64,000 nucleotides of DNA from assembly GCA_965116885.1 (NCBI GenBank), contig OZ220741.1, positions 608,001 through 672,000 on the forward strand, in the 5' to 3' direction. Below, piece by piece: positions 12,338 to 50,877 of the stretch. Within the stretch, counting starts at the first letter, position 1, and each line of letters opens with the position of its first letter. Origin of the DNA: Candidatus Latescibacterota bacterium (GTDB taxonomy: Bacteria; Latescibacterota; UBA2968). The position numbers and the translations under genes were made by a program. Under the pieces are notes generated by a model that saw only the letters and a program-made list of their open reading frames with translations, was not told the origin of the DNA and made no database searches.

Positions 12338-12345
12338 GAGGAATT

Positions 12346-34058: not shown

Positions 34059-35399
34059 TTGAATCTAAATACCCAGAGACCAAATATCCTGTTCATCATG
34101 ACAGATCAACAGCACGCAGACATGATGAGCTGCACAGGTAATAAGTGGTTGAAGACGCCGGCCATGGATAGCCTGGCACGAGATGGTATCCGTTTTGAGA
34201 TGGCATACGCGACAAATCCCGTATGTGTCGCAAGCCGAACCAGCATGGCCACAGGCGTCATGTCCTGTCGCCTTGGTGCGGGCAACAATGGCCCTGGCAT
34301 GGCGATCAAGCAACTCCCGCCTGAAGTGCACGATCATTCGATGGGCAAGATCATGAAGCGTGCCGGCTACGACACGTTCTATGGCGGAAAAGTGCATATG
34401 TGCCCCCCGCTGGCCCCAGAGAATGCAGGTTATGACGAATATTTCCGAAATGATCGCGAAGCACTGCCTGCGGCCTGTCTCCAATTCATGGAGAAGAAGA
34501 GAGGCAACCCCTTTTTTGCCGTAGCATCATTCATCAATCCCCACGATATCTGCTTTGCTCACATTGCCCGCAATGGCGAAGATAGGCACGGCGTGTTGGC
34601 GTTACATAAGGAGGCGTCCTCCCTTGAGATGGATGAACTTCCGCCACTTCCAGACAACTACGCGATACAGCAGAATGAGCCTGCAGCGATCGAAGCACAC
34701 CTGAATCCCAATGCGCCAACGCCCGCTATCACGATGCGGAAGGAATATGACGAGAAGGCATGGCGAATCAATCGGTGGATCTATCATCGACTTACCGAAA
34801 AAGTCGATCGCCACATCGGCGACATTCTCGACGGTTTGAAAAAAGCCGGACTCGAAGAAGACACCATTGTGATTTTCACCAGCGACCACGGCAATATGGA
34901 TGCGAGCCACAGGCTGGCATCCAAGGGTGTCTTCTATGAAGAATCGGTAGGTGTTCCGTTTATCCTCAAACACATAGGAGGCACTCCAGGTGGCCGTACG
35001 AACAGGACGCATCTGGTCTCCACAGGGCTCGATATCCTGCCCACAATTTGTGACTACGCAGGCATCAAGCAGCCTGACCATCTTCTTGGTATGAGCCTTC
35101 GCCCGCTGGCAGAGGATAGGCGTGTGGACGACTGGCGTACCTATGTGGCGTCTGAAAACCACTGGACCCGAATGATCCGAAGTCAGAGATACAAGTATTG
35201 CGCCTACGATCACGCGTTCGGGAATGAGTCACTGGTTGATATGGAGAATGACCCTGGTGAAATGCAAAACCTTGTTGATGATCCCAAATTCCAGGACGTA
35301 ATGACTGAGCATCGCAGACTCCTTGCGGATTGGAGCAACCTTTCCGAAGACAAAGACGCCTCGAAATACCTTAAGACAGGTCCAGGACCTGAAAGATAG
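34059..35399 (+). CDS. Sulfatase
   Basis: AGGAGG RBS with TTG start; PNILFIMTDQQ, CVASR variant motif, FTSDHG. Confidence 0.9.
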   Translation: MNLNTQRPNILFIMTDQQHADMMSCTGNKWLKTPAMDSLARDGIRFEMAYATNPVCVASRTSMATGVMSCRLGAGNNGPGMAIKQLPPEVHDHSMGKIMKRAGYDTFYGGKVHMCPPLAPENAGYDEYFRNDREALPAACLQFMEKKRGNPFFAVASFINPHDICFAHIARNGEDRHGVLALHKEASSLEMDELPPLPDNYAIQQNEPAAIEAHLNPNAPTPAITMRKEYDEKAWRINRWIYHRLTEKVDRHIGDILDGLKKAGLEEDTIVIFTSDHGNMDASHRLASKGVFYEESVGVPFILKHIGGTPGGRTNRTHLVSTGLDILPTICDYAGIKQPDHLLGMSLRPLAEDRRVDDWRTYVASENHWTRMIRSQRYKYCAYDHAFGNESLVDMENDPGEMQNLVDDPKFQDVMTEHRRLLADWSNLSEDKDASKYLKTGPGPER

Positions 35400-35494
35400 G
35401 CTTATACAACAAGTCTATGAGATGTTTCCAGCGCCTATAGGAATATCTAATTGAGGATAACGACTGATGTCCTCAACATAACATTAGAAAATTT

Positions 35495-35528
35495 TAAACC
35501 CCTGGAGAGATATGCTCTTCAGGGGTTT
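35495..35528 (+). terminator. Rho-independent terminator-like hairpin
   Basis: AAACCCCTGGAGAG-ATATG-CTCTTCAGGGGTTT. Confidence 0.55.
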
Positions 35529-35658
35529 CATTTGGATGGATTTGGGTTGCAATCTGAACGCGAACATCCCGTGCCAAAACGCGAGGACTATGTATGTGTG
35601 ATCAGATGGTATGCGCATCGCCTTTTTCCGCATTCAGGAAGTACGACTGTTGTACAGC

Positions 35659-35704
35659 ATAAAGGTCTATATATAAACCAATAAGATTATATATAGACCT
35701 TTAT
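35659..35704. promoter_or_regulatory. Perfect 18-bp inverted repeat upstream of the CARF regulator
   Basis: ATAAAGGTCTATATATAA-10 nt-TTATATATAGACCTTTAT. Confidence 0.55.
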
Positions 35705-35996
35705 TGTAGCTCTATAACATAGATTAGAGACGATCTAATTATTGTTGGACTATATATCGCCCAATTTTTTGAAAAATTGTTTGGTAATGTTTATGGTGAC
35801 ATATATATTGTGAACTCTCTCAAAAATAATTGATGATTTATACATACTCCTCCAAAATTTTGTGAATCATACATCAACCACTCAGACCTGTCCCATTAGA
35901 TGCTACGGAGTCTATTACAAACAGTCAGAGATTAAAATTTTAAAAATACTGTTTTAGACTACAAAATTCAATGAAATGACTCAAGAGGATAAAGAT

Positions 35997-37640
35997 ATGC
36001 AACACAAATTGGTCGCTGTAGTCGGCAACACACCACAAGTTATGACAGAAATCTTCTGGGCATTGCGTGTCCAGCACAAAGTGCCCATCGATGAAGTATT
36101 TTTGATAACGACAACAGAAGGACAAAAAACCTGCCAAGAACGCCTTTTGGATGAAGGTCGCTTTGACAAGATGTTGTCGGATTACAAGATCGATCCCAAT
36201 ACTGTCGCGTTCAAGCCCGATCATATCCATGTATTTGAAGATGCTGAAGGCAATTTTTTAGACGACATCCGCACCTCAGAAGATAATCGTCTGGCTCGGG
36301 ACCAACTTTTCCGATGGATTGAAAATTGGACGAAGAATGCCCATGTCGCTTTACACTGCTCGCTCGCAGGTGGACGTAAGTCAATGGGATACTTACTCGG
36401 AGCTGCTATCCAATTTTTTGGTCGGTCACAAGATCGCCTGTATCATGTGCTGGTCACGCCACAAGCAATTGAAACAAATCCCGATTTTTTCTTTCCACCC
36501 GTGCACGAAGCGCAAATCCCCACATCAGACGGACAAAAAATTTCTACTGCTGATGTACGTATTGAATTGGCTGAATTGCCTTATGTATCCGTAAGAGATA
36601 TATCCGCATTTGACGATGAAAACTATGACCTAATTCTACAGAAAACGCAAGCAGAAGTGAGACGTGTTCCACGTCTAAGAGCAGAAAACAAACGGCTGAG
36701 AGAAACATCGGGCAATGCTGGCGGCTTGATCGGAAATAGCTTTGCAATGCAAAAAACCAAAGACCGGATTCGACAAGTTGCTGGTGCAGATGATGCAACC
36801 GTGTTGATTTTGGGTGAAACGGGAACGGGTAAAGAGCGCGCAGTTGCAGCACTACATGAACAGAGTACGAGAAAAAATAAACCATTCATAGCAGTTAACT
36901 GCGGTGCATTTCCAGGTGAACTTTTGGATGTAGAGCTATTCGGTGCGGTTCCAGGTGCTTATACCGGACAAGCCGGACCGCGTGAGGGTGCTTTTCGCGC
37001 AGCTAATGGCGGGACCCTTTATCTTGATGAAATCGGAGAATTATCACATGAAGGGCAGGCGAAGCTGTTGCGCGTATTACAAGAAAAGAAAGTGCGCCCG
37101 GTTGGCAGTGATAAACAAGAGGAAGATGTTGATGTACGCATTGTTGCGGCGACCAATCGCGACTTGAAGGCCAGAGTTCAAGAAAAAGCTTTCCGAGAAG
37201 ACCTGCTGTACCGCCTCAATGTTTGGACCATTGAAATGCCACCGTTGCGAGAACGACGCGAAGATATACCGGAGTTAATCGACCTGTTTTGTGAACAATT
37301 TAATGAAAAATACAAACGCAATGTTGTGGGCTTTGATGCCCCAGCCATAGAAGCTATGTGTCGCTACACCTGGCCGGGCAATGTGCGCGAGCTTGAACAT
37401 GAAGTTGAGCGCATCGTCATTGCTGCCCCACAGAGTGCATTTCGCGTACATAAGGAAGACATAGCCAGGCATATTATTGAATCATCAGATTTAGACACGG
37501 GTAGTGGGACACTCAAAGAGCAAGTGGCGCAGTTTAAGAAGCAGAAGATTCAGGAAATACTGGCGCAAACTCAGGGCAGTGTTAAACGCGCCGCGAATAT
37601 ATTGGGTATTAATGAATCAACGGTGAGCCGAAATCGGTAA
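35997..37640 (+). CDS. NE0113-family CARF domain fused to sigma-54 enhancer-binding AAA+ domain and Fis-type HTH
   Basis: N-terminus: VVGNTPQVMTEIFWAL, LITT, LDDIRT, LHCSLAGGRKSM, FGRSQDRLYHVLV, FFFP. AAA+: GETGTGKE, VNCGAF, ELFGAVPGAYTGQ, LYLDEIGE, QAKLLRVLQE, AATNRDL, FREDLLYRLN, WPGNVRELE. HTH: GSVKRAANILGINESTV. Confidence 0.92.
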   Translation: MQHKLVAVVGNTPQVMTEIFWALRVQHKVPIDEVFLITTTEGQKTCQERLLDEGRFDKMLSDYKIDPNTVAFKPDHIHVFEDAEGNFLDDIRTSEDNRLARDQLFRWIENWTKNAHVALHCSLAGGRKSMGYLLGAAIQFFGRSQDRLYHVLVTPQAIETNPDFFFPPVHEAQIPTSDGQKISTADVRIELAELPYVSVRDISAFDDENYDLILQKTQAEVRRVPRLRAENKRLRETSGNAGGLIGNSFAMQKTKDRIRQVAGADDATVLILGETGTGKERAVAALHEQSTRKNKPFIAVNCGAFPGELLDVELFGAVPGAYTGQAGPREGAFRAANGGTLYLDEIGELSHEGQAKLLRVLQEKKVRPVGSDKQEEDVDVRIVAATNRDLKARVQEKAFREDLLYRLNVWTIEMPPLRERREDIPELIDLFCEQFNEKYKRNVVGFDAPAIEAMCRYTWPGNVRELEHEVERIVIAAPQSAFRVHKEDIARHIIESSDLDTGSGTLKEQVAQFKKQKIQEILAQTQGSVKRAANILGINESTVSRNR

Positions 37641-37726
37641 AGAGTAAAGGATAGAGTGAGGGATCGCGGTCATCTCGCCTGCATGGATTTACAGAGAAAA
37701 TCCCAAAAATATGAGTTATAAAAGGC

Positions 37727-37761
37727 GTGCATTTTTGCCTATCGCACAGGCAAAAATGCCT
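37727..37761. promoter_or_regulatory. Candidate upstream activator sequence 1 (two 14-bp palindromic boxes)
   Basis: GTGCATTTTTGCCT-7 nt-AGGCAAAAATGCCT. Confidence 0.7.
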
Positions 37762-37858
37762 GTTTGAACATCTCATCGTTCATTTCCTGTTTCAAAAAAA
37801 TATCACACAACCTGTTGTTTTTTTTGATCTCTGAGGAAATTCGGAGATTTTTTTGTGT

Positions 37859-37875
37859 TTGGCACGCGATTTGCA
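37859..37875 (+). promoter_or_regulatory. Sigma-54 (-24/-12) promoter upstream of cas6
   Basis: TTGGCACGCGATTTGCA, GG-N10-GC, matching the YTGGCACG-N4-TTGCW consensus. Confidence 0.9.
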
Positions 37876-38053
37876 AATAGAAACTGTCAGAATCAGGATG
37901 GGCAGGATGCAAGGATGATCAGGATACCCCCGACCCCACCCAGGGGGTTAGATACCGCAACACATCCGTCGAGATGACCGGAAGATCCCATTTAGTCATG
38001 CATTTGGGCCTATAGATGGGCGCAGAGATTATCCACTATTCAAGGAGATATTG

Positions 38054-39013
38054 ATGTTTGACCTGAAACTCGCGTATATGCGCCTCCATTTCAAAGCGCG
38101 GGGCCATCTGCGCCTGCCTCCTTATAAAGGCTCCACATTTCGCGGGGCTTTTGGCGTGTCATTTAAGCGCGCGGTCTGTATTGTGCAACACGGCGAATGC
38201 GAGCGGTGTCTGATTCGGGCGCAATGCGTGTATCCATACGTATTTGACACACCAGTAGATAATGCACAGGGCATATTTCGAGGGTATCAAGAGGCACCGC
38301 ATCCCTATCTGATCGAACCCCCACTGGAAACAAAAACCGATTACGCGCCAGGCGACGAATTTGCCATTGGTCTGACCTTGATAGGCCGCGCACTGAATTA
38401 TATGCCCTACTTCATCTATACATTCCAGCGAATGGGAGACACAGGTCTTGGACGCGGACGCGGCAAATGCGATCTCATATCGGGCGAAGCACTACACCCG
38501 GATGGGACGTGGCAGAAGGTTTACGACGGAGCGAGCGAAATGTTGCAACAAGACGTACCCCATTTGACCGCACAGGATCTGATGCACAACGATATAGGAT
38601 CTCGGATTCGCCTCTCATTTGTAACACCTACCCAACTCAAAGCAGACCAAATATTGCAGCGCGGATTGGATTTCCCCGTACTCGTACGCGGGTTATTGCG
38701 GCGGTATTCGGCACTGGCCGCATTTCACGCAGACGGACCGCCAGATATAAATTATGCCGACTATATCTCGGCGGCAGAGAATATTCAAACCACATCCCAC
38801 AATTTGACCTGGCGCACCTGGGAGCGGTATTCAAACCGCAAGAACCGACGCATGAGCGTGAGCGGTTTTACAGGAGATGTGGTCTTTGAAGGCGACATGA
38901 CACAATTTCACCCCCTGCTGGCCCTGGGCGTGCCGATACACGTTGGCAAGTTGACCAGCTTTGGGATGGGGCAATACGCTATAAAAGGAAGAAGGGTGAA
39001 GGGTGAAGGGTGA
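38054..39013 (+). CDS. cas6: CRISPR precursor RNA processing endoribonuclease Cas6
   Basis: LPPYKGSTFRGAFG, C-x5-CxxC-x5-C, APHPY, FVTPT, RYSNR, Gly-rich loop HVGKLTSFGMGQY. Confidence 0.92.
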   Translation: MFDLKLAYMRLHFKARGHLRLPPYKGSTFRGAFGVSFKRAVCIVQHGECERCLIRAQCVYPYVFDTPVDNAQGIFRGYQEAPHPYLIEPPLETKTDYAPGDEFAIGLTLIGRALNYMPYFIYTFQRMGDTGLGRGRGKCDLISGEALHPDGTWQKVYDGASEMLQQDVPHLTAQDLMHNDIGSRIRLSFVTPTQLKADQILQRGLDFPVLVRGLLRRYSALAAFHADGPPDINYADYISAAENIQTTSHNLTWRTWERYSNRKNRRMSVSGFTGDVVFEGDMTQFHPLLALGVPIHVGKLTSFGMGQYAIKGRRVKGEG

Positions 39014-39060
39014 AGGCAATAGCATGACCTGTTTTATTCCCAGCAGAAATTGTCAAACAA

Positions 39061-39095
39061 GTGCAAAATTGCACAGAGAACGTGCAGAAATGTAC
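39061..39095. promoter_or_regulatory. Candidate upstream activator sequence 2
   Basis: GTGCAAAATTGCAC-7 nt-GTGCAGAAATGTAC. Confidence 0.7.
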
Positions 39096-39192
39096 GCTTG
39101 AACATGTTGGTGTCAATTTGATTTCAGAAAAAATATCGTATAACATATTGTTTTCTCATAAATTAAAAAATAAATTCAAATTTTCCTCCATT

Positions 39193-39209
39193 TTGGCACG
39201 CGGATTGCA
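39193..39209 (+). promoter_or_regulatory. Sigma-54 (-24/-12) promoter upstream of the DUF1232-cmr operon
   Basis: TTGGCACGCGGATTGCA, GG-N10-GC. Confidence 0.9.
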
Positions 39210-39271
39210 TAAACAAGAGGTGCTCGCAAAAAAGTTTTTAATCCGCAGTAAAAACCAAATGGAGGAATACC

Positions 39272-39622
39272 ATGAAGAATCGAAACAATCAAGGGTATAG
39301 GAAATATTATTCTCAGGACAGCTTCTGGAAAAAGTTGCTCAAATTCGCACGTACCGCGGGCCGGGAAGTCGTTGAGCATGCCCTATCACTCTACTACACC
39401 GCGCAAGCTCCCGACACACCTGCCTGGGCCAAAACGGTCATCACCGGGGCACTGGGGTACTTTATTCTTCCAGCCGATGCAATTCCCGACCTGATCCCGG
39501 CCGTCGGTTACGGCGATGACCTGGGTGCGCTGGCCGCAGCACTCGCAGCCGTGGCGGCTCATGTCACGCCTGAAATCAAAGCCCGCGCGAAAGAAAAAGC
39601 CGCTGAGTGGTTTGGTGAGTGA
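39272..39622 (+). CDS. YkvA/DUF1232 family small membrane protein
   Basis: TPAWAKTVITGALGYFILPADAIPDLIPAVGYGDDL. Confidence 0.9.
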   Translation: MKNRNNQGYRKYYSQDSFWKKLLKFARTAGREVVEHALSLYYTAQAPDTPAWAKTVITGALGYFILPADAIPDLIPAVGYGDDLGALAAALAAVAAHVTPEIKARAKEKAAEWFGE

Positions 39623-39882: not shown

Positions 39883-40722
39883 ATGAATAGGACAGTGTTG
39901 AATCTTGAAACTGTAACACCAATGTTTTTACATGGTGAGAATAGTCGAAATCTCGAACTTCGACCACCGCCGTTCAAATCACTGATGCGTTATTGGTGGC
40001 GAACTGTGCAGGATTGCGAATGGAAATCGCTTCAGAAGGACGAAGCAAAATTATTTGGTAGCACAGATCGTAAAGCACCATTCTCAATTCGTATTTTAGG
40101 AGAAACGGAACTGGACCGTAGGCGCTATAAACCGTTGCCACATCGAACTGATAATCGTGGTTTTCAGACAGATGCGTATAAAGAGGGACAGTCATTTGAC
40201 CTGTATCTGATTACAAAAAACGGATCAAATACTTCGACTTATGAACAGATTGCAAAACTCGGCTTTTTGCTCGGCGGCGTTGGGAATCGATCACGACGTG
40301 GATTCGGTTCGATTCGTGAAACAAACTGGAATTTCACAGACGTTTCTGATCTACGGCAGGAAGTTTTGAATACTCTAAACGCTGTCGCAGGCACTAATCA
40401 TTTTCAGATGATGGGCCAGATCATTGAATCTAAACTCACTCGTTTTCCAGATTATCCTGTTATTATGTCTATCTATTTTGGCAATCCAACGCCCCAGATT
40501 GACACCCTATTAAGGAAAATCGGACAGGCGACTCATACTCATAAAGATGATGCTTTGGGTTATGCAAAAGGAAGACAACGGCTGGCTTCACCTATTCATG
40601 TTCGTATCCAGAAGATGGGATGGAAATATATTCCAATTGTGACCCAACTTTACTTTCCGAAATTCAAACCAGAGAATTTTGAACAAAAGCAAAAGGATTT
40701 TATTGACGCCATCATCACTTAG
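39883..40722 (+). CDS. cmr1: Type III-B RAMP protein Cmr1
   Basis: LETVTPMFLHG, ELRPPPFKSLMRYWWR, LFGS, LGGVGNRSRRGFGS, RLASP. Confidence 0.92.
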   Translation: MNRTVLNLETVTPMFLHGENSRNLELRPPPFKSLMRYWWRTVQDCEWKSLQKDEAKLFGSTDRKAPFSIRILGETELDRRRYKPLPHRTDNRGFQTDAYKEGQSFDLYLITKNGSNTSTYEQIAKLGFLLGGVGNRSRRGFGSIRETNWNFTDVSDLRQEVLNTLNAVAGTNHFQMMGQIIESKLTRFPDYPVIMSIYFGNPTPQIDTLLRKIGQATHTHKDDALGYAKGRQRLASPIHVRIQKMGWKYIPIVTQLYFPKFKPENFEQKQKDFIDAIIT

Positions 40723-40732
40723 GAGGCTTTCT

Positions 40733-42619
40733 ATGAGTGGCAACCGGACGAAACGTCTCATGCTCATGTTTACAATTGGTCCTGTGCAATCGTTTATTGA
40801 AGCAGCTCGGAAGACAGAGGACTTGTGGATGGGGAGTTATATTCTGTCTTATCTTATCGCTAAAGCAATGGACAAAGTTCGTGGCGACGATATTGAGCTG
40901 ATATATCCCGCTATTGGAAACCAATCGCCATTTGAATTTTGGAAACAACAAGATTTCGCAACCCCATCTTTTCCAAATCTTTTTTTAGCAATTGGCAACG
41001 GTATTGAGGTTTCTCAGAATGCATTGATTGAACTCGCAAAAGATGCTGAACGTACTATAAAAACCGAATTTGAGCGAATGGCGGAATGTGTGATTGATAA
41101 GGCATTCAGCAACAAGTGGCGTGGTACTTATGTAGAGGAAGTGTTCAAGCGACAAATCTCGGATTTTTTTGATGTCTATTGGGTGATTACCCAAGAAGCA
41201 GAGCAAAATTACGGGGATTGGTACGATCACACCGCAAGCAATCTCGCAGCTATCAAAAATTGCCGAACATTCGCACAGATCCGTGAGTTTGGACGGAAGT
41301 GTTCACTTGATGGAACACGCGAAATTCTCCATTTGAGACAAGACGAAACTGTGCGAGAAGCAATGAAATGGTGGCAGGGCTTTGCTGAACGCGAACCGAA
41401 GTATTGCCGCAGGGAAGAGGCTCTGTGTGCCGTTTCATTAACCAAACGGATGGGAAGGCATTTTCTGGAGACCCAATCGGAATTTTCAGATCATTTTTCT
41501 ATTCAATCTCTGAACTTTCCATCTACATCGGAGATAGCTACAGCGGACTTCAAAGAACAATTCCAACTCAATATTGGGGCCTTAGGCATTTATGGAGATT
41601 TCGTTAAAGAAGTCAAAAAGTTGAGGACATTGGACAACAAACCAGCAGATATTCCAATTATTCAACCGTTACCAAAAATCGGGATGCTCCAGGGGAATAT
41701 TGATGGCGAGTGGCTGTACGAAGAGACTTGGAACGAGTCCTATCTAAGGCGTTACTACAACATTGATGCAAAAAACCAGAATAAACAGATTCAGACTTGT
41801 AAGAGATTGCACCATAAACTTGTCCAATGTCTTGGTGAACCGGGGCGATATTATGCTGCCATTGCACTTGATGGCGATAACATGGGCGAGAAGATTCGGG
41901 AAGCTAAATGCAAGGAAGACCATGAAAAACGCAGCAATGATCTGATTCAATATACGAAAGATGCTCGTCGGATTACTGAACAAGAGCATCTCGGAAAACT
42001 GACCTATGCGGGTGGTGACGACATCCTTGCACTCGCAAACCTCAAAGACCTCTTACCTATACTGAAAGGCTTGCGCGAAACATTTCCCAATTTCACGACT
42101 GCTTCGGTAGGTGTATGTATTGCCCACAATAAAGTTCCACTGGGAGAGGTGCTTCAGCAAGCGCGTCAAATGGAGAAAGTAGCGAAAAATGAAGGTGAAC
42201 GGAATGCTCTTGGAATCACGCTGTTTAAGCACTCCGGAAATATCAGCCAGACAGTAACAAAGTGGACGCCCGGCGATTTGGATGTGCTCAATATTAGTGA
42301 GGAGTTACTCAAATTATTGAGCGATAATGAAATTTCTAAGCGTTTTTTGTACGCTTTCCGTGAGACATTTGCCAAATTAATTGAAGACGAAGATGATTTC
42401 GGGGAACTGGGCCGTCACCTTATTCAAGCTGAGTTTGAACGGATTATGGAACGGGCACATTCGAACAAAAAAACAGAACTCAAAGAAAGTCAACAAACCA
42501 TCCATACACTTACTCAACTCATCTATCATATCCAGCCTTTCTCTCACTTTCTCGGATATTTAGAAATTATCAATTTCATTGCGAGGATAAAAAATGAAAC
42601 TGTTTCTCCAACCCAATGA
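40733..42619 (+). CDS. cas10: Cas10/Cmr2 without HD domain, with intact GGDD cyclase motif
   Basis: Begins directly at FTIGPVQSFIEAARKTEDLWMGSYILS; YYAAIALDGDNMG; YAGGDDILA; TASVGVCIAH. Confidence 0.95.
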   Translation: MSGNRTKRLMLMFTIGPVQSFIEAARKTEDLWMGSYILSYLIAKAMDKVRGDDIELIYPAIGNQSPFEFWKQQDFATPSFPNLFLAIGNGIEVSQNALIELAKDAERTIKTEFERMAECVIDKAFSNKWRGTYVEEVFKRQISDFFDVYWVITQEAEQNYGDWYDHTASNLAAIKNCRTFAQIREFGRKCSLDGTREILHLRQDETVREAMKWWQGFAEREPKYCRREEALCAVSLTKRMGRHFLETQSEFSDHFSIQSLNFPSTSEIATADFKEQFQLNIGALGIYGDFVKEVKKLRTLDNKPADIPIIQPLPKIGMLQGNIDGEWLYEETWNESYLRRYYNIDAKNQNKQIQTCKRLHHKLVQCLGEPGRYYAAIALDGDNMGEKIREAKCKEDHEKRSNDLIQYTKDARRITEQEHLGKLTYAGGDDILALANLKDLLPILKGLRETFPNFTTASVGVCIAHNKVPLGEVLQQARQMEKVAKNEGERNALGITLFKHSGNISQTVTKWTPGDLDVLNISEELLKLLSDNEISKRFLYAFRETFAKLIEDEDDFGELGRHLIQAEFERIMERAHSNKKTELKESQQTIHTLTQLIYHIQPFSHFLGYLEIINFIARIKNETVSPTQ

Positions 42620-43763
42620 TACCTTCTTTTTTCGCGACGGGCGTCCTTTTACAAAAGGCGAACAGTCTGAAGGTCATTCAATTTTTCCACCCCTTCCCTC
42701 GACAGTTCTCGGTGCGTTGCGTACTGCATACATCGCTGAATTTGGTGATCTATCGCTTTTCTATTCCGGCGGGATGCGAGAGACGATTGGTACGCCAGAA
42801 TCACTGGACAATGCTATTCAAGTGCGCGGTGTTTTTCTTGCAAATAGGCGAAGCAATCAGATGGGTCGAATGGAAATATTTTTTCCAGTGCCACTTGATC
42901 TGGTATATAAAAAAATAGAAAAGAGAGATGATCATACCCTGCTTCATTTACTGACGCCGCAATCTAAAAATTTTGCGTCGAACGGGATAATCAGCACGCC
43001 TCTTACATGGCTAAATTCCGAGTCCATTGATTTCGATGCAGATGGATTGTTACGACTGGGGGCAATCACACGATACTTACAAGGAAACAGTCAGAACCTG
43101 CTTCTTACAAACCGAGCAACATTGGTTGAGCGCGAAACCAAAACGGGTATCGCGCGGGATAGACACACTTTGTCGTCCGAAGAACACATGTTGTATCGTA
43201 TTGATATGTCGAGATTTAAAAATAGAGATGGCAATTACGGCTTTGTGGTAGAATATGAATGCCCTATGAATTTGCCACAAAAAGGACTTTTGAAATTAGG
43301 TGGAGAAGGCAAAGGTTTTGTCTATCAGCACAGCAACTATGATATTGATCCACTGTCCAGCCGTCTTGAGGCAGTCAAACGAGCCATCCAATCAACAAAC
43401 AGATTCAAGCTATATTTTGCAACGCCGACCATATTCCGGAACGGATGGTTACCTTCATGGTTGAATAGCGATACGCTTTCGGGTGAATACCCACTGGAGA
43501 ATACAGCACCAATTTCACTCAAATTAATCACCGCCGCGGTTGGTAAACCTGTTCCTGTTGGCGGATGGGACATGGCAAAAGGTGAGGCAAAACCCAACTA
43601 TCGCGCAGTGCCTGCTGGCAGCGTCTATTACTTTGAATTGATGGATAAAAATCGAATTGATGATTTAATCGCCGCTTTTCACTACCAAAACATTAGCGAG
43701 GAGCGTTCTGAGGAGGGATTTGGACTTACTCTTATCGGTGTCGCACAGGAGGGAAATGCATGA
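42594..43763 (+). CDS. cmr3: Cmr3
   Basis: PNDTFFFRDGRPF, FPPLPSTVLGALRT, LGGEGK, VGGWD, AVPAGSVYYFE, EGFG. Confidence 0.93.
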   Translation: MKLFLQPNDTFFFRDGRPFTKGEQSEGHSIFPPLPSTVLGALRTAYIAEFGDLSLFYSGGMRETIGTPESLDNAIQVRGVFLANRRSNQMGRMEIFFPVPLDLVYKKIEKRDDHTLLHLLTPQSKNFASNGIISTPLTWLNSESIDFDADGLLRLGAITRYLQGNSQNLLLTNRATLVERETKTGIARDRHTLSSEEHMLYRIDMSRFKNRDGNYGFVVEYECPMNLPQKGLLKLGGEGKGFVYQHSNYDIDPLSSRLEAVKRAIQSTNRFKLYFATPTIFRNGWLPSWLNSDTLSGEYPLENTAPISLKLITAAVGKPVPVGGWDMAKGEAKPNYRAVPAGSVYYFELMDKNRIDDLIAAFHYQNISEERSEEGFGLTLIGVAQEGNA

Positions 43764-45010
43764 AGACGCTTATAACACCAGTCGGCACATCGCTCTTTAC
43801 AAACTATCTTGATGAGAATGGGGACAGTGCCTTTAGACACAATTATGAAACAATCAGAAGATCTCCCGCTTCGGAATGGGATGAGTATGATTATGAAATT
43901 GAGGATCTAAAAACGTCCAGTCTTGAATTTATTAAAAAAGAAAAGGAATCCGCGTCTGCGGAACTTCAGAGTATCGCTAAAATTCAAGAAAAATTCAAAG
44001 AGGACCTCGAAGTTCGTCTATTTGCCTCAGACACGATTGCTTCGCGATTGGCTGCGAAGATTTTAGCGGATGATAAAGTGGCTTCAGTTTTAGGCGATAA
44101 TATCTCTGTCACATTCGATACACAAACAGATGTGATCAAGGGGCTTCAGGTTGAAGATCCCAAAGTCTTTTCGCAGGAAGGCCTGTCCAACTTGATTCAA
44201 AAGATCAATTCGGCCAGCAATAATGCCGGGGGCTATCAGGAACTTGCTATCAATATCACCGGAGGGTTCAAAGCCACCTTGCCATATCTGACGATTTTGG
44301 CACAACTCAATCGTGTTCCACTTTACTACACATTTGAAGATACTGAAGCACTCATCTCGATTCCACAAGCACCGTTAGTTATTGATTGGGGTTTGATTGA
44401 ACGCTATTCCGACGTTCTCAGAAAAATTGATGAGGGAATAGGAAATTGGTCGGCATTCAGAAACCAACATTACCAGGCTGTTCAAGATTTGGAGGCATTC
44501 ATTGAAGTTGTTGACGAAATGGCATTTCTTTCCCCTATTGGCCAAATTTTCTGGAATCACTATCAAAGATACTTTATCGTCGAATTGCCAAGAGGAAGTT
44601 ATTTCAAATATGACTTCAGAGAACGCGGCTTGATTGATCAATCCATTGAAGAGCTTTATAGACGGTTAGACACCGTTCTAAGACCAGATCTTCTCGATCT
44701 GGTGAAGTGCTATAAACGCATTCGCGATTTGGGACATAATGATGACTTAAATCATACTGGACAAATCCCAAATCCTACGAGAAGTCCGAATCGAGAAATG
44801 TTCATTTTCAAATCGACAAATGAAGAGCAGATACGGTTGCTATACACCTTTAAGGTGAATGAACGAGAGATCACTCGGCTTACAATATTTGATCTTCTTT
44901 GTCGAGATTTTAACCACAGTACTTATTTTGATACATGGAAACGCAAATTTGGTCGTCAAAATTTTCCTGATATTGACTTTGTCACACGCACATTTGAAAT
45001 TCCTTCATAG
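43760..45010 (+). CDS. APE2256-family CARF effector with a possible C-terminal RelE-like domain (Cami1-like)
   Basis: LITPVGTSL, SAELQS, ASDT, INITGGFKA, LYYTFE, LSPIGQIF, then a ~130-aa tail with IRLLYTF and a terminal H..Y. Confidence 0.75.
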   Translation: MKTLITPVGTSLFTNYLDENGDSAFRHNYETIRRSPASEWDEYDYEIEDLKTSSLEFIKKEKESASAELQSIAKIQEKFKEDLEVRLFASDTIASRLAAKILADDKVASVLGDNISVTFDTQTDVIKGLQVEDPKVFSQEGLSNLIQKINSASNNAGGYQELAINITGGFKATLPYLTILAQLNRVPLYYTFEDTEALISIPQAPLVIDWGLIERYSDVLRKIDEGIGNWSAFRNQHYQAVQDLEAFIEVVDEMAFLSPIGQIFWNHYQRYFIVELPRGSYFKYDFRERGLIDQSIEELYRRLDTVLRPDLLDLVKCYKRIRDLGHNDDLNHTGQIPNPTRSPNREMFIFKSTNEEQIRLLYTFKVNEREITRLTIFDLLCRDFNHSTYFDTWKRKFGRQNFPDIDFVTRTFEIPS

Positions 45011-46368: not shown

Positions 46369-47443
46369 TTTCCATCCATTGGATACGAGGGAACTGGTTC
46401 GCTCAAATAATCAGATTGATAATTTCGCGTTGCGTTACCGACATTCCTTGCAGGTTACTCGCGATGGTGAGAAATACAAATTTCAACTTTCCGATCCGAC
46501 GTTTAGTAAATCTTATGATGAATTGATTGAGCAGTTGCGAGAACGTCAAACAGAGCAATTTCTCCAATTTGTTATGCAGGATATCAGGCTTTACTGCGTT
46601 GATGCAACAGTTGATTGGCGACTAATTGTTGGCCTCGGCAGTGAGCATGTTCAAGAGACAAACATGACACTTCATCATATCTACGGCATTCCGTACATTC
46701 CCGGAAGTGCCGTGAAAGGCGTGTTGCGGCATTGGTGGGTGCAAGAGGATTTCGACAACAACGAAGACAAAGCACTGAAAGATAAAAATTTTCTCGCTCT
46801 CTTTGGAAGTCAAAAACGGCGCGGAGAAGTGCAATTTCTTGACGCCTATCCTGAGCAAGTCCATTTTGCGAAAGATATTATGAATCCACACTATCCCGAA
46901 TATTACAGTGGTAGCGCACCACCAACAGATTCTCAAAATCCAAGACCTATCAATTTTTTAACTGTTGAGAAGACCGCCTTTCGGTTCGCTTTCTTAGCGA
47001 AGAAGCAGAAACTTCTCGATAAACTCAAGGCACGATTTGAAGATGTATTAGAGCTGAAGGGCATCGGTGCGAAAACAGCGGTTGGCTATGGGTATTTCCG
47101 AAATTTTGAAGATCAGACCGACAAAATTATTGACACATTCAAGCGTCAACAACAAGCTGAACGGGAAGAAGCGGAAAGACAGCAAGAAGCCGAGAGATTG
47201 GCAAGTCTTTCTCCTGTCGAACAAATTGTCGAAGAATTGAATGGTCTCGCTGACAATTCTGTGGATGAAGCGCGTGTTACCGATATCTACAACATAGAAC
47301 TCCTATCTCTTGAAGGAGATGATCAACAGATGGTCGCACAGGCATTGAAAGCTTATTGGGAACGTATCAATAAGTGGAGTGGCGGTTCGAGGAAACAGAG
47401 AACAAAGGTGCAAAAGGTTAAGTCAATTTTGGGAGAGAGTTGA
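46358..47443 (+). CDS. cmr6: Cmr6
   Basis: WRLIVGLG, LHHIYGIPYIPGSAVKG, FLDAYP, DIMNPHY, PINFLTV, GIGAKTAVGYG. Confidence 0.95.
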   Translation: MMLNFHPLDTRELVRSNNQIDNFALRYRHSLQVTRDGEKYKFQLSDPTFSKSYDELIEQLRERQTEQFLQFVMQDIRLYCVDATVDWRLIVGLGSEHVQETNMTLHHIYGIPYIPGSAVKGVLRHWWVQEDFDNNEDKALKDKNFLALFGSQKRRGEVQFLDAYPEQVHFAKDIMNPHYPEYYSGSAPPTDSQNPRPINFLTVEKTAFRFAFLAKKQKLLDKLKARFEDVLELKGIGAKTAVGYGYFRNFEDQTDKIIDTFKRQQQAEREEAERQQEAERLASLSPVEQIVEELNGLADNSVDEARVTDIYNIELLSLEGDDQQMVAQALKAYWERINKWSGGSRKQRTKVQKVKSILGES

Positions 47444-47449
47444 CTATAG

Positions 47450-48179
47450 TAATCTGGCAAAAATCTTTGGTGAACGGGTGGGTGAAACAGGAGCAGACTT
47501 TTGTGCGATCAACGCCACAGGTGGCTATAAAGCCCAGATCGCCATTGCCGTTCTGATGGGCCAGGCACTCGACATTCCAGTGTATTACAAACATGAACGC
47601 TTTGATGCCATTATCCCGTTTCCACCTATGCCAGTGGCACTCGATTTTTCAATCTGGCAGCGGGCCAGTGGCATGTTTATGGTACTCGGCAAAGGCGACA
47701 TTATTCCGTGGGAGCAGTATCGTGAGGATTGGGATGAACGATTTGAGCCACTGGTCAATCGCGAGGAAATTGATGGCGAGGACTATCTGGAACTCTCGGC
47801 GACGGGACAGATCTTTCACGAGACCTTCCGAACCCGTTTTCAGCAGATAAAGGCCCACAGTCTTCCGCGACCAGCAACAGATAATGAGAAGTAAGCCCCC
47901 AATCTGGGCAATCACGGATACGGACAAGCTCAGACTCCCATTTTGCGGTTCCTGCAAAAGCTTACTGATGAGGTCCCTTACATCCGCTTTTGCCACTCAA
48001 CGTATTGGAACCCGGACCTGCCTGAATCAACCCGGTTTCGGTCATCGGGCGGAGAAGTCCAGGGCATATACTCCAATGGAACCTGGTGCGTGAAGTTTAA
48101 GGTGCATACAACATCAGATGATCAGGAGGTATTACCCGGCATTGTGGCCGATCTCAACGACTGGATAGAGAAAGGTTAA
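47450..48179 (+). pseudogene. 5'-truncated, nonsense-interrupted second APE2256-type CARF gene
   Basis: AINATGGYKAQIAIAVLMGQALDIPVYYKHERF...LSATGQIF; no start codon or N-terminal half; in-frame TAA at 47892-47894, with the frame continuing to 48179. Confidence 0.8.
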
Positions 48180-48460: not shown

Positions 48461-50877
48461 ATCAGGAAGGATTACCCGACTACTGGGGTATTGAAACTTC
48501 TTTGACAAACTGCTTGCCATAGGCATCCACATTGTCATCAGGAAGGATTACCCGACTACTGGGGTATTGAAACATAACCCTTACCTTTCCTGTCTTGTGC
48601 TCCGTGGATATATCATCAGGAAGGATTACCCGACTACTGGGGTATTGAAACTTGGTCGCGCGCACGTATCCCTAAGGGCTTATTAAACACATCAGGAAGG
48701 ATTACCCGACTACTGGGGTATTGAAACTTGTTTGTGATGATCATATAGATGCGCTTGGCCTCTTCAAAATCAGGAAGGATTACCCGACTACTGGGGTATT
48801 GAAACAGGTCTGAGTTGACTTCTTTGAGCTGGTTTGTCATGTTTCGATCAGGAAGGATTACCCGACTACTGGGGTATTGAAACTCATACGTCTCAAGGAT
48901 ACCATGGTCACAGAAATATTCTGCCCATCAGGAAGGATTACCCGACTACTGGGGTATTGAAACTTTACTTGCGAAGTAGCCATTGCCAAATCTCCTTATG
49001 TGATCAGGAAGGATTACCCGACTACTGGGGTATTGAAACCGTTCAATCGAAACCTCATCATCATATCCGTACATTACCATCAGGAAGGATTACCTGACTA
49101 CTGGGGTATTGAAACAATTTTGCGTCTTGCAAGGTCTTGTATGTGCCTATCAATTCATCAGGAAGGATTACCCGACTACTGGGGTATTGAAACCAACGTC
49201 CCAAATTCGGTTTCTGATTTCCAGGCATCAGGAAGGATTACCCGACTACTGGGGTATTGAAACTAATTGGGAAAGTAATGACGATCTGGTGCATAGAAAC
49301 AATCAGGAAGGATTACCCGACTACTGGGGTATTGAAACTTAACGCGGCGTGTAAAAGGATTGTTCTTTTTTCGATTAGCCATTTTTATCAGGAAGGATTA
49401 CCCGACTAATGGGGTATTGAAACACAATAGCGATTGCCGCTTGCAACTCCTGTGCCGTGTATATCAGGAAGGATTACCCGACTAATGGGGTATTGAAACT
49501 CGTTATGGTTGGGCTGCTCCCGAATAGAGGCTTCCGCATCATGAAGGATTACCTGACTATTGGGGTATTGAAACATCATATGAGCGTACATCATCGGAAC
49601 CTGGGGCGGCGGATTGATCATGAAGGGTTACCCAACTACTGGGGTATTGAAACTTGTAGATTTTATCAAACCAGTTGCGCTGAGGATCCATCAATCAGGC
49701 AGGACTACCCGATTATTGAGGTATTGAAACCCGATTCACAGGTTCTTCCAATACGCTTCCGCACCGTGAACCAGGAAGGGTTACCTGCTTACTGGGGTAT
49801 TGAAACACATATGGACCACGGTCATTGACACGAACAATCACCGCTTATCAGGAAGAATTACTCGCCTATTGGGGTATTGAAACATCGCGTGAAGCGTGCC
49901 AAGGCCCACGCATCCGTCCATCAGGCAGGAGTACCCGATTACTGGGGTATTGAAACTCATTTTCTGTTTTCTCTTGAATGAAGTTACCATCGGACGTAAT
50001 CAGGAAGGACTATCTGCTTATTGGGATATTGAAACGTGCCGGTCATGACCATGCCTGCCAAGCAGACATGACATTCAGGAAGGATTACTCGCTTACTGGG
50101 GTATTGAAACTTATCAAGTGCGCTATCACAATCGTCGAACACAATCAAGATCAGGCAGGACTACCCGACTAATGGGGTATTGAAACGTGTACGACATCTC
50201 GCCAATCAGGTCGGGACCGATCAGCCGTCAGGCAGGACTACCCGATTACTGGGGTATTGAAACCCGTCAACACTCTTCTTGGCATACAGCGTTGCCATAC
50301 CTTGAATCAGGAAGGATTACCCGACTAATGGGGGATTGAAATCCAGGGTAGTTTTTGTGTTTCTCGATGTCCACACCAAATCAGGAAGGATTACCTGCTT
50401 ACTGGGGTATTGAAACGCCATTTCAATTGGGTACGTGTCAAACTTGATAAAACCCATCAGGAAGGATTACCCGACTAATGGGGTATTGAAACTTACCTCC
50501 GTGTGAAATTGGTATCGGTCTGTCTCGTCCCATCAGGAAGGATTACCCGACTAATGGGGTATTGAAACGCCTGTTGCGCTATGATTGCGTTCAGGGATTC
50601 GATCTTGTCAATCAGGAAGGATTACCCGACTAATGGGGTATTGAAACCGATCTACGCCGGGGCGAGAATTGATATTTGTCTGGATGAATCAGGAAGGATT
50701 ACCCGACTAATGGGGTATTGAAACTTGTCAAGTGCACGTTTCACGGTCATGTGTGAACATTGTATCAGGAAGGATTACCCGACTAATGGGGTATTGAAAC
50801 TTGACGGCATCGTACAACGCCTTCTGGATTGTGTCCAGATATCAGGAAGGATTACCCGACTAATGGGGTATTGGAAC
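48461..50877 (+). CRISPR. CRISPR array, 32 repeats and 31 spacers; 37-bp repeat ATCAGGAAGGATTACCCGACTA(C/A)TGGGGTATTGAAAC
   Basis: Counted by hand; spacers about 33-48 bp; 3' ATTGAAAC handle; last repeat ends ATTGGAAC. Confidence 0.98.

Follow-up and report, generated by a model that had tools for sequence, protein, structure and literature searches.

Little is understood about how type III CRISPR-Cas systems regulate the expression of their genes, or about how CRISPR types that share a cell are coordinated with each other. A locus from the Latescibacterota raises this question, as a gene at the head of its CRISPR-Cas genes joins a CARF domain to an activator of the sigma-54 type. In this study, we analyzed this gene, its surroundings in a stretch of 64 kb (the window, to which all positions refer) and its homologues, and asked which genes the activator serves and which signal the sensor receives.

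The regulator gene and its family

The regulator gene (35997..37640, + strand) encodes 547 amino acids; it starts with an ATG at 35997 (alternative ATG at 35976) and its stop codon ends at 37640. Pfam, NCBIfam and PADLOC profiles, an AF2 model and Foldseek were used for its analysis. The single ORF contains, in this order, a Cas_NE0113 CARF domain (about residues 1-195), a long linker helix (210-237), a Sigma54_activat AAA+ domain for sigma-54 interaction (245-495) and an HTH_8 domain (506-546). Such a fusion had been proposed in a first-pass annotation on the basis of the motifs GNTPQVMTE, DDIRTS, SLAGGRKSM, SQDRLYHVLV, GETGTGKE (Walker A), LDEIGE (Walker B), GAYTGQ and WPGNVREL, all of which are present in the translation, and the profile searches suggested there agreed with it. 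Cas_NE0113 (PF09623) matched with 2.7e-37 (129 bits, threshold 23) and TIGR02584 with 174.1 bits (cutoff 80.65), while Sigma54_activat (PF00158) was matched over profile positions 1-168 of 168 (1.1e-62), followed by AAA_lid_14 (1.5e-21) and, as C-terminal Fis-type HTH, HTH_8 (4.6e-06; profile positions 3-37 of 42). In PADLOC, the CARF part matched CARF5--CARF (2.3e-72) and the AAA+-HTH part had RtcR_PspF2 as best match (2.1e-103). The AAA+ model superposes on those of FleQ, ZraR and NtrC1 with target-normalised TM scores of 0.92-0.95, an rmsd of 1.3-1.7 Å and 44-48% identity (Foldseek; TM 0.94 and 1.3 Å for the FleQ AAA+ domain).

The loop predicted to contact sigma-54 reads GAYTGQ as compared to the canonical GAFTGA. 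In an alignment of 89 family members, GAYTGQ was found 27 times, GTYTGQ 17 times, GAFTGA 9 times, GAYTGL and GAFTDA 8 times each, GAYSGQ, NAFTGA and GAFSGA 4 times each, GAFTNA and NAFTNA 3 times each, and other forms twice. Thereby, the aromatic residue is kept in all 89 members and the threonine in most, with serine in 8 of them (GAYSGQ, GAFSGA). Eight of the ten closest relatives (P0001-P0010) also have a short C-terminal ending, ...ESTV(S/R)RNR, in common; P0005 and P0008 differ. In our best reading, which as a whole we consider somewhat probable, the protein would be a sigma-54-dependent activator (bEBP) in which a CRISPR-type CARF nucleotide sensor replaces the usual receiver domain.

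A misassembly, which could have produced the fusion, was ruled out because the architecture recurs across homologue clusters and genome loci. Both PF09623 and PF00158 were found in 99 of 120 homologue clusters among those listed, some of them with records from contigs of 4-7 Mb. Of the 150 best representatives from 1.84 billion searched, 11 carry both domains. Among the 30 genome loci examined, 15 have the full-length fusion, and these 15 belong to Latescibacterota, Kryptonia and Bacteroidota. Homologues are linked to cas loci, in line with the earlier annotation: cas genes adjoin the fusion in all 15 loci with a full-length copy, and in 11 of them Cas10 is located inside the examined flanks, with the subtypes III-B, III-A and III-D represented. 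The Pfam scan of neighboring ORFs covered 182 of 197 in one locus set and 50 of 87 in the other, leaving out far-flank ORFs and those of locus L001. Non-fused NE0113 proteins of 350-410 amino acids are found at the equivalent place in the type III loci L013, L015, L017 and L019.

The type III-B locus and its sigma-54 promoters

The regulator is followed on the same strand by cas6, a DUF1232 gene, cmr1, cas10/cmr2, cmr3, a CARF-RelE gene, cmr4-6 and a CRISPR array, and the regulated locus is a type III-B locus, as had been annotated. On the + strand, cas6 (38051..39013; Pfam CRISPR_Cas6 1.3e-18, PADLOC Cas6 2.6e-99), cmr1 (39883..40722; TIGR01894 1.1e-13), cas10/cmr2 (40679..42619; Pfam, NCBIfam), cmr3 (42594..43763; Cas_Cmr3 4.4e-63), cmr4 (45033-45995), cmr5 (45955-46368) and cmr6 (46238-47443; cmr4-6 by Pfam and NCBIfam) were assigned by profile. 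The cas10/cmr2 product keeps the cyclase motif GGDD at residue 445, in line with the earlier description, and no HD domain was detected in it. The array (48461..50877, + strand) has a 37-nt repeat that ends in ATTGAAAC and occurs in 26 copies when up to 3 mismatches are allowed. A small DUF1232 protein is encoded between cas6 and cmr1 (39272..39622, + strand; Pfam DUF1232 3.2e-12); this gene was absent from the first-pass account of the locus.

For the effector of 416 amino acids (43760..45010, + strand), the earlier description was sharpened to a CARF-RelE protein of the Cami1 type. PADLOC CARF7--CARF_RelE matched with 1.3e-102, aligning residues 1-395 to profile positions 1-340 of 356, and Pfam gave Cas_APE2256. 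One RxxxxxH motif is present, yet the identity as HEPN-type Csx1 was dropped because the CARF_RelE match spans the full length. A second, degraded Cas_APE2256 CARF gene (47379..48179, + strand) retains only the C-terminal half of the CARF; it has an in-frame TAA at 47892-47894, after which the frame is open to 48179.

Two sigma-54 promoters named previously were recovered as exact -24/-12 matches on the + strand. P1, TGGCACGCGATTTGC (37860..37874), is located 220 bp 3' of the regulator stop and faces cas6, while P2, TGGCACGCGGATTGC (39194..39208), faces the DUF1232 gene and cmr1-6. They are the only exact matches of TGGCAC-N5-TTGC in the 64 kb, where 0.12 would be expected, and at least two matches occurred in 1 of 100 shuffles. 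Across 546,556 bases, 18 exact sites were found versus about 0.84 expected from base composition, and 17 of these are located 137-280 bp after a regulator stop (12) or before a DUF1232 gene (5), all on the regulator's strand. All three Kryptonia loci carry TGGCAT-N5-TTGC 88-89 bp past the regulator stop. In L012, no sigma-54 site was found at up to one mismatch, only a degenerate TGGTAT-N5-TTGA.

Palindromes shared upstream of these promoters recur across loci as well. At P2, a putative enhancer (39061..39095, + strand) consists of the tandem palindromes GTGCAAAATTGCAC (exact) and GTGCAGAAATGTAC (one mismatch), with the -24 element following about 100-130 bp downstream. Exact GTGCA-N4-TGCAC has 17 matches in 7 loci, all inside promoter-bearing intergenic regions. 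The P1 and P2 regions align colinearly; canonical GTGCA-N4-TGCAC sites are absent from the P1 region of the window, and a variant element, GTGCATTTTTGCC followed by the palindrome GGCAAAAATGCC (37727..37760, + strand), occupies the colinear position of the GTGCA-N4-TGCAC pairs found in other loci and has the same form in L002. Between enhancer and promoter, a conserved A/T-rich tract was compared by eye with the IHF consensus, which it did not fit.

A terminator-like hairpin followed by a T-run (37826..37849, + strand) ends some 10 bp upstream of the P1 -24 element, and its sequence is also found at P1 of L001, L002, L006, L007, L009, L010 and L027. Upstream of the regulator gene, two sigma-70-like promoter matches overlap (35769..35809, + strand); together with an internal match at 36259, they are the only ones on the + strand in 35300-40000, and none is located on this strand between 37640 and 39883. 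As the total of 7 such matches is not above that in shuffles (mean 8.0), the pair may at best hint at a sigma-54-independent promoter of the regulator itself. Autoregulation was not supported, as neither GTGCA-N4-TGCAC nor a sigma-54 site occurs upstream of the regulator gene; a sigma-54 site was likewise absent before the leader of the array. The source genome is expected to contain rpoN, which is not among the ORFs of the 64-kb window.

As judged from sequence, the output half, in which a CARF-bEBP would act on sigma-54 promoters of neighboring genes, is well supported. With a sensor-activator fusion and matching promoters ahead of the neighboring CRISPR genes, infection sensing probably switches on these genes directly. 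The positive feedback on its own genes that had been proposed fits the window, where the promoters face cas6 and cmr, but it is not general. In Kryptonia, the sigma-54 promoter points at type I-B and adaptation genes, and type III-A genes are located upstream of and outside the sigma-54 unit; in L004, it points at non-cas genes. In other loci, cas6 and DUF1232 accompany the regulator while the effector module varies between III-A, III-B and III-D, with DUF1232 at the matching position in L003, L006-L010, L025 and L027. If our reading is correct, one regulator-promoter cassette would have moved among these effector modules.

Ligand and mode of activation

The AF2 model of the CARF domain is of moderate quality (pLDDT 73, TM about 0.5), with a pLDDT of about 80-90 for residues 1-155. 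All top Foldseek matches are CARF proteins, led by the cA4 (cyclic tetra-adenylate) ring nucleases Sis0455 and Sso2081 (E 9e-7 to 3e-6) and followed by the CARF of Cad1, which has the best target-normalised TM score (0.67-0.70). A PDB sequence search with the regulator gave non-significant CARF matches only (E 0.06-0.12). In a weak profile alignment (E 0.12), which leaves the equivalent of D75 unplaced, T12, E18, T39 and R127-K128 of the regulator pair with S11, E17, T37 and R105-K106 of Sis0455. R105 and K106 are described as essential for cA4 binding and cleavage in the relevant part of PMC9638899. Crn1-type ring nucleases have a catalytic Lys at the floor of the pocket, joined by an Arg in the short type. 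For the conserved pocket, which follows strands 1 and 4 of the Rossmann-like CARF fold, AGGRKSMG was counted in 88 of the 89 aligned members and GNTPQ or GSTPQ in 86. The Crn1-like grouping given in the first-pass annotation stands only in part: the nearest solved folds are of the Crn1 type, but PADLOC places the domain in CARF5 with the Cad1-type CARF_ADA (4e-09) and only weakly with the Crn1-type CARF_m13.

A model of the CARF homodimer reached an ipSAE of 0.79 (best control 0.00). The mark was attained for 20 of 30 solved homomers and for 1 of 23 single chains; since CARF dimers have already been solved, the score of the regulator may reflect likeness to them rather than independent evidence. 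The three runs have at least 80% of their contacts in common, the partner pLDDT is 88, and K128 contacts K128' at the dimer axis. Between two Latescibacterota subfamilies, the CARF core is 72-79% identical and the AAA+ domain just 41-43%, which suggests one conserved ligand.

Judged from these features, this ligand is probably cA4, made by the Cas10 of the locus. The Cami1 family, to which the effector belongs, is cA4-activated according to the section of PMC11229360 dealing with it. The same activator and promoters could also serve a CARF that senses something other than a Cas10-made cyclic oligoadenylate (cOA), following the RtcR/CoCoNuT model. RtcR, the only characterised CARF-bEBP, is reported to respond to tRNA fragments with cyclic-phosphate ends (PMC7790460, PMC10159003), RtcR-like CARF-ATPase-HTH proteins heading defence superoperons are predicted in a passage of PMC11090510 to sense such RNAs, and RtcR_PspF2 was the best PADLOC match of the AAA+-HTH part here. 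However, RtcR models align to residues 227-545 only and the CARF is without an RtcR-type CARF match; it matches NE0113/CARF5, folds like the cA4-binding Crn1 and Cad1 and keeps the Arg-Lys pocket, and the family is located in type III loci that encode a cyclase-competent Cas10 and effectors of the cA4 type. Sensing of a different ligand is regarded as unlikely for our regulator.

Gating mainly by a protein partner would be another way to control the activator, be it Cas6, the DUF1232 protein or the Cmr complex. It would follow RtcR, whose CARF is bound by RtcA and RtcB, needed for activation according to the pertinent part of PMC9650030, and it would fit the constant company of cas6 and DUF1232 across III-A, III-B and III-D modules. 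The almost invariant residues of the pocket, however, point to a small nucleotide ligand and argue against such gating, as do members in Kryptonia and Bacteroidota without DUF1232 and without the Cas6 type of the window, which makes it very improbable.

With cA4 as ligand, the regulator would be made from its own sigma-54-independent promoter, with the terminator blocking read-through into cas6, and the CARF dimer would keep the AAA+ domains inactive, like the N-terminal domains of NtrC1, DctD and RtcR. A few basal Cmr complexes would meet target RNA, upon which the GGDD cyclase of Cas10 would form cA4. Binding of cA4 in the Arg-Lys pocket at the CARF dimer axis would release the AAA+ domains, which would assemble on GTGCA-N4-TGCAC enhancer sites and, using ATP, open the sigma-54 holoenzyme at P1 for cas6 and at P2 for the DUF1232 gene, cmr1-6, the Cami1-like RNase and possibly the array, these being the predicted operons downstream of both promoters. 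As the pocket keeps Crn1-type ring-nuclease residues, the sensor may also cut cA4 and thereby reset itself. That Cas10-made cA4 releases the activator, which then fires sigma-54 promoters, appears to us a reasonably likely account.

Strict sigma-54 dependence of both cas6 and cmr would mean that leaky expression, which we assume, is needed to start the loop. A constitutive activator would solve this start-up problem. Binding of cOA could have the reversed sign and switch the activator off, a negative feedback limiting expression of the toxic RelE-type effector, or the CARF could act mainly as a ring nuclease while transcription is constitutive. Conservation of the Sis0455-essential residues as R127-K128 would suit such roles, and signal removal would suit a locus in which profile searches recognised no other ring nuclease. 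However, an activator that is always on would have no need of a costly AAA+/sigma-54 arrangement or of insulation by a terminator. Against a reversed sign, the N-terminal sensor domains of known bEBPs mostly repress until their signal arrives, and the position of the Kryptonia III-A genes, upstream of and outside the sigma-54 unit, fits an order of sensing followed by induction. Both variants taken together seem improbable to us, and ligand binding is expected to activate rather than inhibit.

For the Latescibacterota, activation by cA4 would mean that cas6, the effector complex, a membrane protein and an RNase that blocks translation are amplified in a self-timed manner upon infection. In Kryptonia, and possibly in Bacteroidota, a III-A sentinel would switch on a I-B interference and spacer-acquisition module, which would be a messenger-mediated relay between two CRISPR types. 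We see an even chance that a type III messenger is coupled directly to sigma-54 transcription by a bEBP that is gated by its CARF and may destroy its ligand, including the III-A to I-B relay in Kryptonia. The system offers one protein, an enhancer palindrome of 14 bp and a -24/-12 promoter as defined parts that can be transferred to E. coli; this makes the question directly testable, and the parts could serve as a cA4-responsive transcriptional switch.

Comparison with known systems

The first-pass annotation knew of no characterised example, and no published description of a CRISPR-linked CARF-bEBP fusion was found in a literature search that did not extend to the 2020 CARF classification (NAR) and paper supplements. 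The search also gave no work joining sigma-54 with cyclic oligoadenylate or Latescibacter with sigma-54 and, among the papers listed, nothing relevant on RpoN with type III or cas6; the listed work on CARF and sigma54 concerns RtcR or CoCoNuT, and that on NtrC, CARF and Cas10 does not describe the fusion. By the selection rules stated in parts of two recent surveys, such proteins were passed over, as PMC11229360 excluded regulators and PMC12409355 kept ring-nuclease candidates of up to 250 amino acids.

RtcR, the closest characterised analogue, shares the CARF-AAA+-HTH plan and the logic predicted here, in which the CARF gates a bEBP and the bEBP acts at a sigma-54 promoter to drive the genes next to it. 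RtcR-like regulators of R-M/CoCoNuT loci likewise head a co-directional defence gene set, according to the part of PMC11090510 describing them. Nevertheless, the CARF of the regulator belongs to another family, and membership in RtcR was rejected: NF038308 reached 306.6 (cutoff 650) on residues 229-523 only, and the PADLOC RtcR models align from about residue 227 on, in the AAA+-HTH part. No rtcA or rtcB family match was found among the window ORFs scanned. The regulator stands in a type III CRISPR-Cas context with cA4 as likely ligand, whereas RtcR, according to the sources cited above, is gated by RNA fragments and RtcAB binding and not by a cyclic nucleotide.

The Crn1-type proteins Sis0455 and Sso2081 are the nearest solved folds, and their GxT/S loop, Glu, Thr and Arg-Lys align with the regulator CARF. 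However, NE0113/CARF5 and Crn1 proteins stand alone, and ring nucleases are small (hence the limit of 250 amino acids in the passage cited from the 2025 survey, PMC12409355), unlike the 547-residue fusion to AAA+ and HTH domains. Cad1, a CARF-adenosine deaminase, has its CARF in the same PADLOC group but a deaminase as output instead of a transcription activator; titles of entries among the Foldseek matches indicate Cad1 structures with bound cA4 and cA6.

CalpL-CalpT-CalpS also leads from a type III cA4 signal to transcription via an alternative sigma factor, as outlined in a section of PMC11229360. In this system, a SAVED-Lon protease cuts an anti-sigma factor and frees an ECF-type sigma factor, so that, unlike in the regulator, no bEBP, no sigma-54 and no CARF are involved. 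Csa3 resembles the regulator as a CARF transcription factor encoded in a CRISPR locus; PMC11229360 lists it among predicted transcription factors, and PMC4012209 links it mainly to type I-A. It has neither an AAA+ domain nor a connection to sigma-54, and carries a winged helix in place of the Fis-type HTH_8. Known transcriptional outputs are Csa3 and CalpL/T/S, to which a sigma-54 activator gated by cA4 would add a third route of a different kind. Such a route would use ATP and stay tightly off in the absence of signal, with large induction possible, and it might reset itself. As a CARF-wHTH factor, Csa3 is presumed to link cOA with the expression of cas genes, and the regulator combines RtcR-like and Csa3-like logic.

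Domain architecture and distribution of the regulator

The regulator is encoded by the ORF 35997–37640 (+). An alternative ATG is present at 35976, and the start at 35997 was preferred because the homologues open with MQHKL.... All motifs named in the first-pass annotation were found in the translation, and the HMMs suggested there for verification (Cas_NE0113/TIGR02584, Sigma54_activat and HTH_8) all matched in Pfam and NCBIfam. Cas_NE0113 covers residues 19–208 of the 554-aa form (2.7e-37; Pfam), and TIGR02584 (cas_NE0113) scored 174.1 against a cutoff of 80.65 (NCBIfam). Sigma54_activat was matched over its entire 168-position profile (1.1e-62), and AAA_lid_14 and HTH_8 were also matched (Pfam). 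With PADLOC, CARF5--CARF aligned to residues 1–202 (2.3e-72) and RtcR_PspF2--CARF_AAA_HTH was confined to residues 227–545. Among the PADLOC models that matched, those of the CARF5 group were CARF, CARF_TM and CARF_ADA, and the CARF_AAA_HTH models were all of RtcR type and aligned to the AAA+-HTH part only.

An AlphaFold2 model of the full protein built from 89 family members (mean pLDDT 82) predicts a CARF domain (1–195), a low-confidence linker with a long helix (210–237), the AAA+ domain and the HTH. The modelled AAA+ domain superimposes on FleQ, ZraR and NtrC1 with an rmsd of 1.3–1.7 Å and a target-normalised TM of 0.92–0.95. The loop form of the window protein, GAYTGQ, is the most frequent one in the family (27/89), and the second Latescibacterota subfamily (P0074–P0102 in the alignment) has GAFTGA, GAFTDA, GAFTNA and NAFTGA. 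Since exact sigma-54 promoters lie downstream in both subfamilies, the variant loop is probably competent.

The fusion of CARF and sigma-54 activator is a real family. In the homologue search, 99 of the 120 best clusters listed contained both PF09623 and PF00158 (41–88% identity, window protein counted), several of them from contigs of 4–7 Mb; the others were fragments without CARF (6) and ordinary activators (15). The family is rare, since only 11 proteins with both domains were among the best 150 when 1.84 billion 50%-identity representatives were searched by profile. A CARF-only alignment, run against a single genome of each species, gave 30 loci (L001–L030), and tblastn identified full-length fusions in 15 of them: 11 in Candidatus Latescibacterota MAGs (L001–L004, L006–L010, L025, L027), three in Kryptonia (L016, L018, L020) and one in a Bacteroidota MAG (L012). 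The nearest relatives of the window regulator are all from Latescibacterota. Contig ends cut L005, L011 and L021, only short N-terminal matches were obtained for L026 and L028–L030, and the CARF occurs without an AAA+ domain in L013–L015, L017, L019 and L022–L024. The non-fused proteins have 350–410 aa in the six of these loci scanned by Pfam (L013, L015, L017, L019, L023, L024); L014 and L022 were judged from tblastn only.

CRISPR-Cas genes around the regulator

The placement of the regulator upstream of cas6 and cmr1-6 was upheld by Pfam and NCBIfam, the same-strand order downstream being cas6, DUF1232, cmr1, cas10/cmr2, cmr3, a 416-aa CARF protein gene, cmr4, cmr5, cmr6 and a degraded second CARF gene, followed by a CRISPR array of 26 repeats. 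The cas10/cmr2 product has its GGDD at residue 445; an HD domain was not detected. The 416-aa protein matched CARF7--CARF_RelE over its full length (1.3e-102; PADLOC) and has the architecture of Cami1, a CARF-RelE effector described in a 2024 type III survey as activated by cyclic tetra-adenylate (cA4) (PMC11229360). Neither cas1, cas2 nor rpoN was found within the 64-kb window, and the locus is flanked by ordinary chromosomal genes, among which sulfatases are frequent.

Some further features of the window were noted. The degraded CARF gene (47379–48179; Cas_APE2256) encodes just the C-terminal half of the CARF and has an in-frame TAA at 47892–47894, followed by ~94 further open codons in the same frame. 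The outer parts of the array are regular, and in its middle (49538–50416) the repeats are degenerate, each with 3 mismatches, and unevenly spaced, with gaps up to ~270 bp. There may be two arrays, or one decaying in the middle. At 12002–12958, a CopG/BrnA-like antitoxin ORF (−) lies close to a PIN-domain ORF (+), which may be a toxin-antitoxin remnant. The DUF1232 protein (116–150 aa; 39272–39622 in the window) is encoded by the first gene past the sigma-54 promoter in 9 of 12 Latescibacterota loci (window, L003, L006–L010, L025, L027), regardless of the type III subtype downstream; the gene is missing from L002 and L004, and L001 is cut. The protein matched no PADLOC profile.

The gene-neighbourhood survey proposed at first pass showed cas genes adjoining the regulator in 15/15 full-length loci, with Cas10 inside the fetched flanks of 11. 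The effector module is III-B in L027, like in the window, and III-A with HD-Cas10 and Csm2-5 in L002 and L025. L003, L008 and L010 were assigned to III-D, with PADLOC applied to L003 only; these modules (L003:12346–19479, L008:13088–20653, L010:13968–20652) encode an 845–875-aa fusion of a cold-shock domain to a multi-Cas7 (Csm3/Cas7_IIId) region, a CARF-PD-(D/E)XK protein, a short Cas10 of 531–547 aa and a Csx10-type Cas5. L006, L007 and L009 have a short Cas10 and five RAMP genes, and in L016 and L018 a III-A module precedes the regulator. Cas10 was not found in L001 (fetched sequence stops just past cas6), L020 (contig begins just upstream of the regulator), L012 (type I-B genes and cas6) or L004.

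In L004 (9033–20387), cas6 is the only cas gene beside the regulator, and the 10 kb to each side contain no Cas10. The exact sigma-54 promoter of this locus (11945) faces genes for FGE-sulfatase, ankyrin-repeat protein, FGE-sulfatase, Ser/Thr kinase (mad6/PD-T4-6-like; PADLOC), DUF4407 and FHA proteins; the regulator cassette may have come to serve another set of genes here, possibly one for defence. In L004, L008 and L025, the three loci with cas6 ahead of the regulator, an AAA-ATPase_like + PDDEXK_9 gene is located immediately upstream of cas6 (L004:7171–9018, L008:6592–8466, L025:7481–9028). Small DUF4258-type genes adjoin fused and non-fused NE0113-type CARF genes across unrelated phyla (L012:5192–5485, L016:12083–12418, L017:8352–8669, L023:1625–1906).

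In Kryptonia, the regulator gene is the last of a III-A operon, cas6-csm1-5-CARF (L016:9980–19802, L018:8411–10437, L020:1476–11292). Its downstream promoter faces a ~45-codon hydrophobic-peptide ORF, a DUF4258-like gene and a complete type I-B module that includes cas4 and cas1. The arrangement suggests a route by which type III signalling could switch on a type I system together with spacer acquisition.

Sigma-54 promoters and upstream elements

The two promoters, previously placed at 37859 and 39193, were recovered as exact TGGCAC-N5-TTGC sites at 37860 (P1) and 39194 (P2), the sole copies in the window (0.12 expected). Both are on the + strand and intergenic, before cas6 and before DUF1232-cmr, respectively. 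In the window and the 30 loci (546,556 bases), 18 exact sites were found versus ~0.84 expected from base composition: 12 at 137–280 bp past the regulator stop, five before DUF1232 and one within csm1 of L011 on the opposite strand. The site after the regulator stop is present in the window and in 11/11 full-gene Latescibacterota loci. All three Kryptonia loci have TGGCAT-N5-TTGC 88–89 bp past the stop with three AAATATCGGC-like repeats ahead; in L012, similar repeats are accompanied only by a degenerate TGGTAT-N5-TTGA.

The P1 and P2 regions of the window are colinear over ~190 bp, and 17 promoter regions have three elements in common, namely GTGCA-N4-TGCAC palindromes, a TTGAACAT box and an A/T-rich tract. 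The palindromes occur as one or two pairs ~95–200 bp upstream of the −24 element (in the window exact at 39061 and with one mismatch at 39082), and 17/17 exact copies in the loci are inside these promoter regions. P1 of the window and P1 of L002 have the variant GGCAAAAATGCC. A hairpin resembling a terminator, with a T-run, ends ~10 bp short of P1 and is kept in seven other loci. In a simple scan of low specificity, sigma-70-like + strand matches were confined to the regulator gene and the sequence upstream of it, with 37640–39883 devoid of any. Promoters, palindromes, hairpin and sigma-70 gap combined have the layout of a textbook unit dependent on a bacterial enhancer-binding protein (bEBP) and insulated from read-through. 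Upstream of the regulator, a 600-bp A/T-rich intergenic region (35400–35996) contains a long palindrome at ~35660–35720, ataaaggtctatatata...tatatagacctttat.

CARF sensor, proposed mechanism and known systems

The CARF-only model (pLDDT 73 overall, good over residues 1–155) has the cA4 ring nucleases Sis0455 (E 9.2e-7) and Sso2081 as top structural neighbours. The next neighbours are the Cad1 CARF with bound cA4 or cA6 (target-normalised TM 0.67–0.70), followed by Csm6, Can2, Cam1 and Csx1. On the sequence level, matches to solved CARFs are weak (E 0.06–0.12). The weak alignment with Sis0455 pairs N11-T12/T10-S11, E18/E17, T39/T37 and R127-K128/R105-K106; Sis0455 is reported to require R105, K106 and D75, but not S11, to bind and cleave cA4 (PMC9638899). 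AGGRKSMG is present in 88/89 family members and T-E-T in 84/89.

A CARF homodimer was predicted with ipSAE 0.79 versus 0.00 for the best control (partner pLDDT 88). The mark applied was attained by 20 of 30 solved homomers and by one of 23 single chains, and the result may owe to likeness to solved CARF dimers. The runs share at least 80% of contacts, with helix 131–140 and K128-K128' at the predicted axis.

Between the two Latescibacterota subfamilies (window 35997–37640 vs P0074–P0102), identity is 72–79% in the CARF core, 24–27% in the linker and 41–43% in AAA+; therefore, the sensor hardly changes, and it is the output part that diverges or is swapped. This mosaic, together with the cas6 type, gene order and effector subtype shuffled among the loci, points to modular recombination of the cassette.

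We consider the following account most likely. The regulator would be expressed independently of sigma-54, its AAA+ domains being held inactive by the CARF dimer. Cas10 activated by target would supply cA4 to the CARF pocket, whereupon the activator, assembling at the palindromes, would open sigma-54 holoenzyme at P1 and P2 and raise the levels of Cas6, DUF1232 protein, Cmr complex and Cami1-like RNase; the CARF may then reset the switch by hydrolysing cA4. The output half of this mechanism is highly probable in view of the architecture, promoters, enhancers and linkage. For the input half, homology and context moderately favour the proposed ligand and its activating sign. To get under way, a strict positive loop would depend on some leaky expression or on a second type III system free of such regulation. 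Less likely alternatives would be a ligand other than cyclic oligoadenylate (cOA), as for RtcR; inhibition by cOA or a role chiefly as a ring nuclease; and gating by a protein partner.

A search of full-text literature, with supplements and the 2020 CARF classification outside its scope, gave no article in which sigma-54 is connected with cOA signalling. In excerpts of the 2014 CARF paper, NtrC-type fusions appear only for the divergent RtcR-like CARF, and NE0113 is listed with families without effector domains (PMC4012209). As far as the sections consulted extend, a 2024 CoCoNuT paper extended RtcR-like regulators to R-M and CoCoNuT loci (PMC11090510), the 2024 type III survey left transcription factors out of consideration (PMC11229360) and a 2025 survey of ring nucleases admitted candidates of up to 250 aa only (PMC12409355). 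The CARF-bEBP fusion in type III loci is apparently uncharacterised and undescribed. It resembles RtcR, where a CARF gates a bEBP, and Csa3, a CARF transcription factor within a CRISPR locus. Membership in the RtcR family was rejected, as the equivalog scored 306.6 against a cutoff of 650 and aligned to residues 229–523 only, i.e. the AAA+ part (NCBIfam); the regulator belongs to neither the RtcR nor the Csa3 family.
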